A stretch of 64,000 nucleotides of DNA, taken from positions 1-64,000 of the forward strand of contig JAHLVW010000108.1 of NCBI GenBank assembly GCA_019058275.1, read 5' to 3'. The DNA is from Candidatus Heimdallarchaeota archaeon. Lineage in GTDB: Archaea; Asgardarchaeota; Heimdallarchaeia; JABLTI01. The position numbers and the translations under genes were made by a program. Positions 24,422 to 26,316 of this stretch are shown here, piece by piece. Each line of letters starts with the position of its first letter. The first letter of the stretch is position 1. Under the pieces are notes generated by a model that did no database searches, was not told the DNA's origin, and was given only the letters and a program-made list of their open reading frames with translations.

Positions 24422-25405
24422 TTAATGCATCTCAGCATCTTTAGCTCTGACAAGACGATTATTAAACTTATCTTTTTCAGTAACCGATGATGAGACTTTA
24501 ACTTTTTTAGCTATTTTTATCTTTCCATTTCTTATAACTAATGTTTTTTTATAATAATCATTTATCGCCAAGTTCACCATTAATAAAAGATGATTTCTTA
24601 GACTGTTTCTTCCGTATTCCATTGACTCTACAATTCTATTTAGTTCTTCGCATTGATAGATGTAGTTGTATAATTTGTAAGCTGAGTTCTGTTTTTCTTC
24701 TAATTCCTTAACCAGTTTCTTGAAGTCTATTTTTCCATTATTATAGTCATATCTTGATTCAATTTTGTATGGGGTTCTTCTGCTGATAAACGCAGCTAAA
24801 CCATCATAATATTTTACAATAATGGATAAGACATTTCCAGAGATGATTTCATCGTGATGAGAAATACATACTTCTCTAACTTCTCTATCAGTAATCGTAA
24901 TTTGTTCATAGATTTTACTTTGATGGGTTTTAGTATGGACAAAGTGGTGTAGCATGAGAGCAATGAGTAATCGTTGTAATGCTTTAGGGTAATTAATCCC
25001 TAATCCTTTTCTGATTTTTAATTTCTTCTCTTTAGGATTTGGTTTTGGTTTATAGTCAGCAACATCACAACTCAACCATTTTACTTTACCGTACCCTTCT
25101 GCTCTCTTGCTTCCTAAGAATCGTCTACTCAAGAAATATCCTATCTTCTCTCTTGCTTGTTTCATGGAAGAATCCACACAGGTAATTTCAAGGTACCCTT
25201 GATAACCTCGTAAAATTGTTGGTGGTCGTCGTTCTCCCTTGACGACTTTTCCTATAGGTGTGAATGTAGGATAACTATTGGTTTTTGGATCAGCAACTAC
25301 CTTAATCCAACAACCATGCTTCTTGATGAATGGTTTGTGAAGTACGATTGGTGTCTCTAATCATCCAATGAGAGTGGCTATTTTTCTCAGTTGTATTTCT
25401 GCCAT
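24422..25405 (-). pseudogene. Cas5-like RAMP fused to HD-type nuclease domain (in-frame TGA at 25361-25363)
   Basis: ATG 25405 overlaps the cas7-like stop. MAEIQLRKIATLIG*LETPI...; G-rich loop LGSKRAEGYGKV; then ALMLHH...HH...YDGLAA resembling an HD domain (HH where HD is expected). Confidence 0.7.
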
Positions 25406-26316
25406 GCGTCTAAACTCTCCTGTAATTTATGGTTTTGATTCTCTGTTGTTTCTCTCTCAACAATTTCTATACTTCCATTATTTTCTTGTCCGAAGATTCT
25501 CTCAAAAGATACTTTTTCAAGTGTCATTTCTTTGACCTCGAGACGTCCATATCCACTATTACCTCCTCGCCCAAGTTGAGTTATTCCAAGAATACCTTCT
25601 ATAAGTAATCCCAATAGCCATTGAGGAATCACTTTTGAGAATTCCACATAAAAACAAAATTCACCACTGAAATATTGCTCTGAGAAATCTTGCAGAGACT
25701 TTTTATCCCTTCGCGAAGCATGACGAAACTCATTGGAAACATAAACAAAGGAAAGTCCTTTTTGTTCTGTGATTTTGTCTAATGACTTATCAGATTGTAT
25801 GATATTATCACTCCAAACTCTAATTGAAGATTCTTCTCCAAGCATACCAAATAGTTGTCTGATAGCACAAGGATTATCACCACATTTCCCCATTAAGTGC
25901 TCACCTAAAAGTAAAGTAGATTCATTGTTTCCTTGAAATTTTTCTTTAATTGTAGGAGAACAATATTCAATTTCCTTACTGTAAAGAATATTCATAATAC
26001 TATGTCTAATTGCACCTCTAATCCCTTTCACTACTCGAGAGATGCCTCGTTCTTCTTTTAGTATAGAAATTGAAATTTTAGCTTCAGGTTTCTTTTCTTT
26101 TGCTTTTATTCGAAGAGTATTGAAATCATCAAGTATCAAATCTTTGTTCAACTGAAGAAACTCTTCTAATTCAGAAACAACAACATTTGTTTTTCCTTGA
26201 TACTGATAAGGAATCTCCCCACCTCTCATTAGAAATGAACTTGAACCACTGCTGCTGTTAAGTGGTTTCGCCTACCAAGCATGAACTTTAACTGTTATAC
26301 GATTGAATTTTTTCAT
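25387..26316 (-). pseudogene. Cas7-like RAMP (Csm3/Cmr4-like), in-frame TAG at 26272-26274
   Basis: MKKFNRITVKVHAW*AKPL...; KGIRGAIRH; Cys cluster ending CAIRQLFG; G-rich loop LGRGGNSGYGRL. Confidence 0.82.

Follow-up and report, generated by a model that had tools for sequence, protein, structure and literature searches.

The Cas7-like and Cas5-HD gene pair

Two overlapping genes lie on the minus strand of the window (the whole 64,000-nt stretch analysed): gene 1, encoding a Cas7-like RAMP protein (25387..26316, 309 codons), and gene 2, encoding a Cas5-like RRM joined to a Cas10-type HD domain (24422..25405, 327 codons), with 19 nt in common. The initial annotation had placed both genes correctly, and the motifs it quoted, G-rich loops included, are all found in the read-through translations: LGRGGNSGYGR, KGIRGAIRH and CGDNPCAIRQLFG in gene 1, and LGSKRAEGYGK and LMLHH..HH..YDGLAA in gene 2. 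Both frames carry a stop at codon 15, TAG in gene 1 (26274-26272) and TGA in gene 2 (25363-25361).

Gene 1 matches the Pfam RAMPs family above the Pfam threshold (E 2.3e-7) and the PADLOC Csm3 profile (1.6e-6). Its AlphaFold model (pLDDT 88.8) gave 197 Foldseek matches in the PDB at E<=1e-3, and every match among those listed is to a class 1 effector complex (type VII, III, IV or I) or to Cas7-11. With an RRM-based fold, a glycine-rich loop and matches to solved Cas7 subunits, the product is, as modelled, a Cas7-fold protein, and the Cas7 identity first proposed for it is supported. A Cys/His cluster (C119/H140/C145/C150) is invariant among the homologues and suggests a zinc site; the Cas7 domains of Cas7-11 have similar zinc sites.

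Sequence searches of profile databases returned no family for gene 2, and a sequence-profile search of the PDB gave nothing useful. The AlphaFold model (pLDDT 89.8) is more informative: residues 4-125 fold as a RAMP-type RRM that has a G-rich loop, and its best matches include Cas5-size chains of type III, IV, VII and I-A complexes (Z 6.3-7.9; probably Csm4, Csf3 and the type VII and I-A Cas5), with Cas6 and Cas7 chains only 1-2 Z away. For residues 140-300 the closest structures are N-terminal HD domains of Cas10/Csm1 (6ifk_A, Z 8.4, 19% identity; 6mua_A, Z 8.1). Across 90 homologues H153, D154, H161, H183, H184, D201 and H272 are conserved, and the metal motif of the family consensus (LHDF, HH, D) is the HD superfamily pattern of metal-binding residues, H...HD...H...D. 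The window copy departs from that pattern, reading LHHF through D154H (H154 codon at 24946-24944). Comparison of the predicted structures with Cas7, Cas5 and Cas10-HD thus gives two RRM/RAMP folds, with an HD domain added in gene 2. The proposed Cas5-HD architecture stands as an RRM RAMP joined to an HD domain, and can be refined in that the HD is of the Cas10 kind.

Inactivation of the window copy

The codon-15 stops were checked against intact homologues, in which position 15 is W or F in gene 1 and R, K, Q or E in gene 2, and in which the residues ahead of each stop also align. The stops are therefore nonsense codons in genuine coding sequence and not start-site artefacts, as the initial annotation had held. 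Judged from the alignment, the gene 1 stop is a single-base nonsense change, TGG>TAG, and the gene 2 stop is probably another, CGA>TGA. Both codons (26272-26274 and 25361-25363) fall just past the first beta strand of the respective RAMP fold, and their shared codon number looks like a coincidence. Recoding of the stops as pyrrolysine or selenocysteine was ruled out: one stop is TAG and the other TGA, homologues carry ordinary residues there, and other copies have frameshifts and other stops.

Every conserved Cas7 residue is kept in the window copy, and three conserved Cas5-HD positions deviate. Such near-complete retention of conserved residues indicates that inactivation was recent. With two nonsense codons and D154H in the HD motif, we read this copy as a recently inactivated pseudogene, from which no full-length protein would be made by either gene; the inactivity suspected at the outset is thereby upheld.

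The pair family is small, with 151 clusters at 50% identity among 1.84 billion representatives, and homologues with names come almost entirely from Heimdallarchaeota MAGs. The pair was found in 10 of the 12 genomes of the order, with no more than 16 matches per genome, many of them fragments with stops. About seven copies occur in the present genome and only two of these are intact (on contig C88, at 2017-3911, and on contig C25); the C11 copy has a stop in gene 1, and the C89 and C86 copies have frameshifts in gene 2.

Absence of CRISPR components

The genome comprises 4.1 Mb on 118 contigs. On the contig of the window, a k-mer scan for repeats found no CRISPR array and the genome search found neither cas1 nor cas6, as first annotated; the ORF list of the island that carries the pair (see below) has no reading frame of Cas10 size. 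Elsewhere in the genome, and always away from the copies of the pair, arrays occur only on C26, C68 and C4, ordinary cas1 only on C26 and C76 (plus a weak match on C48), and cas6 only on C26. A canonical CRISPR-Cas locus lies at G000:C26:7839-16956, with cas6, cas1 and an array of repeat GTTTGAATCGTACTATTGTAGTATTGAAAT; the other two arrays are at C68:4005-4449 and C4:1-2400.

Only gene 1 and one paralogue on C11 match Pfam RAMP families in the whole genome, and with just these two matches no canonical type III system is detected. By the array and cas1 searches, array-less status extends from the window to all the paralogous copies: rather than belonging to complete CRISPR-cas loci, these are array-less throughout.

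The island and its insertion site

The pair sits on an island of 4.1 kb. Of the 11 other genomes from this order, 10 have some 150 nt between the flanking genes, one DUF4015-like and the other encoding a coiled-coil protein; here the distance is 4.2 kb, so that the island is an insertion; the earlier description of it as mobile-looking is well founded in this respect. Divergent from gene 1 is a small AbrB/MazE-type gene (26422..26598, plus strand), a recurrent partner of the pair, and the rest of the island (26599..28403, plus strand) holds four small ORFs that match no family, with a G+C content above that of the surroundings.

On the left, the island ends near 28403. Just beyond this junction, at the far side of the island, a relic of the host gene upstream region is preserved on the minus strand (AATAGGTGAATAATTAC, 28404..28420). 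At the other end, the host coiled-coil gene (23115..24314, minus strand) directly abuts the island with its GTG start codon (24314-24312). Alignment with the empty sites clarifies the arrangement: the sequence that the host gene had upstream, all but the last 2-3 nt before the start codon, stayed at the far junction, and at the near junction the island meets the GTG at 24314 directly, bringing its own Shine-Dalgarno motif. A second comparison of occupied and empty sites, at an M20 peptidase gene, again puts the junction exactly at the ATG. A 20-nt inverted repeat with 17/20 matches (24306-24325 versus 26423-26442) ties the right junction, with its Shine-Dalgarno motif and first host codons, to the beginning of the AbrB-type gene, possibly by chance in AT-rich DNA.

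A conserved RNA tail

The right end of the island is formed by two elements, both on the minus strand. The first, a conserved tail RNA (24346..24445), already begins within the final codons of gene 2 (GATGCTGAGATGCAT, which encodes DAEMH); the second (24315..24345) is a hairpin of variable stem with an A-rich loop, followed by the Shine-Dalgarno motif GGAGAT. A tail of about 100-145 nt ends every copy in the sense orientation. Between copies, tail identity is 72-84%, against 66-69% for the coding DNA. Searches with a covariance model found it 3' of every Cas5-HD copy searched, in weak and longer versions in the most divergent Cas5-HD subgroup, and in the copies checked the tail is always accompanied by a gene 2 remnant. 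Decayed copies (C11:57286, L130 and L131) retain a gene 2 fragment together with the tail. Third positions in the DAEMH codons scarcely change, and the frame in which this stretch is read differs among homologues, which places the constraint on the nucleotides.

RNAalifold predicts a 10-bp closing stem (24420-24410 with 24356-24346) around internal stems. Over 26 sequences, 96.2% of the cells of the fold are paired, versus 35-44% when the partners are slid, and 11 pairs show compensatory change, values attained in 0 of 500 shuffles; as the sequences are close relatives, these covariation counts overstate the independent support. Of the three-hairpin cloverleaf proposed earlier for the tail, the closing stem is strong (94.6% paired) and hairpin 1 is not supported (42.9%), a nested alternative fitting better. 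Folding is specific to the sense strand (z -2.61, versus -0.05 for the antisense), and there are 45 G-U cells, with one pair being U-G in 24 of the 26 sequences.

The tail has no family in Rfam at E<=1, is no tRNA according to ARAGORN, and bears no likeness to the CRISPR repeats of the genome. A search of the variable segment through the genome gave only chance-level matches and no target for a guide-like segment. The fold of lowest energy for the window copy (24312-24445, minus strand) has the 5' arm UUUCCGACCA paired to the hairpin arm and the Shine-Dalgarno region; the conserved partner is displaced in this alternative, and the ribosome-binding site would be hidden.

Placement at gene starts

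Beyond the conserved part of the tail, the stem of the hairpin differs in sequence among copies with its pairing kept, and the loop is A-rich. A Shine-Dalgarno motif (AGGTGAT or AGGAGA) follows, with the host start codon about 7-8 nt further. In all, 24 of the 28 tails abut or adjoin either a start codon or the end of a tRNA. Judged by Pfam, the genes that follow code for EF-2, ABCE1, the RFC small subunit, eS19, Snf7, a Glu/Gln-tRNA synthetase, an S1-domain Rpo7-like protein, a UBC-type E2, an M20 peptidase, a PfkB kinase and a DUF6320 protein, and in several copies the end of a tRNA gene takes the place of the start codon. At the Rpo7-like gene (L019:3900-3945, L065, L060, L113 and L128) ATT stands where other sites have ATG, which could be a non-canonical or displaced start codon.

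Comparison with known RAMP systems

On the basis of these features, the locus is one copy of an array-less cassette of ARAMP type that descends from class 1 CRISPR systems, and its inactivation is recent. The core of the cassette consists of the divergent AbrB-type regulator gene, the Cas7-like gene, the Cas5-HD gene and the structured RNA, and it arrived inside an insertion of 4.1 kb that runs exactly up to the host start codon and supplies the Shine-Dalgarno motif for it. With a Cas7, an RRM joined to a Cas10-like HD and a demonstrable insertion, the initial reading of the locus as a class-1-like effector on a mobile element gains support.

To our knowledge, the ARAMP class has been described by computational cataloguing only. 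As summarised in PMC8730458, most of its members have a distinct Cas1 in the locus, and the nucleases named as most common in the summaries of PMC8730458 and PMC12669027 are of the HNH or PD-(D/E)xK kind. The likeness to ARAMP (Makarova et al. 2020, CRISPR J 3:156), in the account of these two summaries, lies in the Asgard host, the lack of an array, the highly diverged Cas7 and probable Cas5 that are nearest to type III, the associated nuclease and, for the paralogous C89 copy, a nearby Cas1-like gene as in most ARAMPs (PMC8730458). The differences are that the contig of the window has no Cas1-like gene, distinct or otherwise, and that the nuclease is a fused Cas10-type HD instead of HNH or PD-(D/E)xK; moreover, an RNA tail and placement at gene starts find no mention in the ARAMP summaries of PMC8730458 and PMC12669027. 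The haloarchaeal HRAMP systems are likewise array-less Cas7 and Cas5 pairs with accessory nucleases and no known RNA partner, but they belong to another host lineage, gave no sequence match here, and have no reported tail or placement rule.

Among CRISPR systems proper, the core of type III (Csm3, Csm4 and the Cas10 HD) resembles the pair in its Cas7 fold and G-rich loop and in a Cas5-like RRM beside an HD, here one that matches the N-terminal HD of Cas10 (Z 8.1-8.4). In contrast to type III, the pair has no Cas10 Palm/cyclase, Cas11, Cas6 or array; only the HD is present, fused to the Cas5-like RRM subunit. Type IV-C, whose large subunit has a Cas10-like HD, is like the pair in deriving from type III by reduction and in having an HD nuclease, and gene 1 finds its best Foldseek matches in the Cas7 chains of type VII (E 1.2e-8), but both types use CRISPR arrays and the type VII nuclease is a beta-CASP protein (Cas14). 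The OMEGA systems of TnpB and IscB are comparable in the way they work only: there too the effector gene overlaps at its 3' end with a structured RNA, which is found where the element borders on host DNA. Their effectors are unrelated RuvC or HNH single proteins, whereas the proteins here are a pair of RAMPs, neither of them a RuvC-type effector, and a flank-derived guide would be hypothetical.

A possible role for the tail

How might an intact cassette work? On our preferred reading, its operon transcript would yield the tail RNA, on which Cas5-HD and a short Cas7 filament would assemble much as Csm4/Cas10 and Csm3 do on crRNA. The RNA, that is the scaffold with its adjoining sequence, would confer specificity and the HD domain would act as the nuclease. 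The likely beneficiary would be the cassette itself, in holding or finding its place at gene starts, and the tail would outlast the decay of the protein genes because the translation signal of the host gene now comes from the cassette. We give an even chance to this reading, in which intact pairs assemble on the tail RNA as a minimal type III core with an HD nuclease, in the service of cassette placement or retention. Against it weigh the fruitless search for a target of a guide-like segment, the lack of likeness between the tail and the CRISPR repeats or any Rfam family, and the loss of both full-length proteins from the window copy; the tail might also serve just to express the gene that follows, or be the DNA end used by an integrase. 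The tail RNA is accordingly a candidate partner of the array-less pair, and we infer its binding by the RAMP proteins only from their constant linkage. A bolder version, with a slim chance of being right, is an RNA-directed, self-placing element in which Cas7 and Cas5-HD use the non-CRISPR tail as scaffold and the adjoining flank as guide. Such a cassette would find or defend its spot exactly where highly expressed genes begin, at their first codon or 5' end, and would be the class 1 equivalent of TnpB with its omega-RNA.

Alternatively, the tail could act at the DNA level, as the attachment site or transposon end for a Cas1-like or LAGLIDADG protein, with the RAMP pair as cargo that serves in defence or another role and the tail unused as RNA. 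The tail is indeed the exact right end of the insertion, and hairpin-forming ends are typical of some single-strand transposons. Most other copies continue from the AbrB-type gene to a gene for a LAGLIDADG and HTH protein of about 540 residues, a family with about 22 copies in the genome (one in the window at 38344-39762, plus strand), and the C89 copy has a Cas1-like ORF about 3 kb past its LAGLIDADG gene. The window island, on which no LAGLIDADG remnant was found, and three copies in another genome nevertheless have the tail with no LAGLIDADG or Cas1-like gene nearby. A conserved left-end motif or terminal repeats, which would match the tail at the other end of the cassette, were not found. 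The strand-specific folding, the 45 G-U cells and the pair that is nearly always U-G also speak against a DNA end. We regard this explanation as unlikely.

A cis-acting switch would keep the RNA but change its purpose: the RAMP-HD complex would bind or cut the tail in the common transcript and so control translation of the gene downstream, where this is an essential host gene, as a dormancy or abortive-infection response or an addiction device. The downstream core functions (EF-2, ABCE1, RFC, eS19, Rpo7-like, Snf7 and GluRS) fit such a role, as do the Shine-Dalgarno motif supplied by the tail and the minimum-energy fold in the window, in which the UUUCC arm gives up its conserved partner for the Shine-Dalgarno region. 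The M20 peptidase, PfkB and DUF6320 genes are not obviously essential, however, some neighbours are tRNAs on the opposite strand, and many lineages tolerate loss of the proteins with the tail kept, all of which makes the switch improbable in our eyes.

Lastly, the usual view of ARAMP and HRAMP as non-programmable innate defence modules, which PMC8730458 and PMC12669027 in their summaries predict to serve in defence by mechanisms distinct from CRISPR, would suit the frequent pseudogenes and turnover and leave the tail as an unconnected intergenic expression element, but such an element needs no 100 nt of conserved, covarying structure starting inside a gene, precise gene-start placement is no trait of defence islands, and we hold this view to be quite doubtful here.

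Assembly of the pair on its tail RNA, the reading we prefer, would if true show a class 1 effector working without a CRISPR array, and could uncover a novel means by which an element captures host gene expression. Array-less RAMP systems (HRAMP and ARAMP) have been catalogued for years, and we know of no RNA partner or function for them. Beyond the earlier annotation, the pair proves to be multi-copy, with a dedicated RNA tail and gene-start placement, and three things are newly available for testing: a conserved folded RNA that is physically joined to each Cas7/Cas5-HD pair, a rule of placement at gene starts that is precise to the nucleotide, and intact cassette copies for cloning. The window copy is a pseudogene, yet the family is worth bench work.

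Site occupancy and variant forms

The site in the window is occupied only here, apart from a partly common left end in the closest relative, and the Snf7 and EF-2 sites are occupied in about five genomes each, which indicates that insertions are both old and recent. In that closest relative (L098:2616-3862, flanks about 95% identical), the first ~110 nt inside the left end of the island are common to both genomes, and different DNA follows up to the contig end. A further variant may exist at the protein level: in P0179 (536 aa) the Cas5-HD profile match is confined to residues 274-516, and this protein is possibly a fused Cas7/Cas5-HD form.
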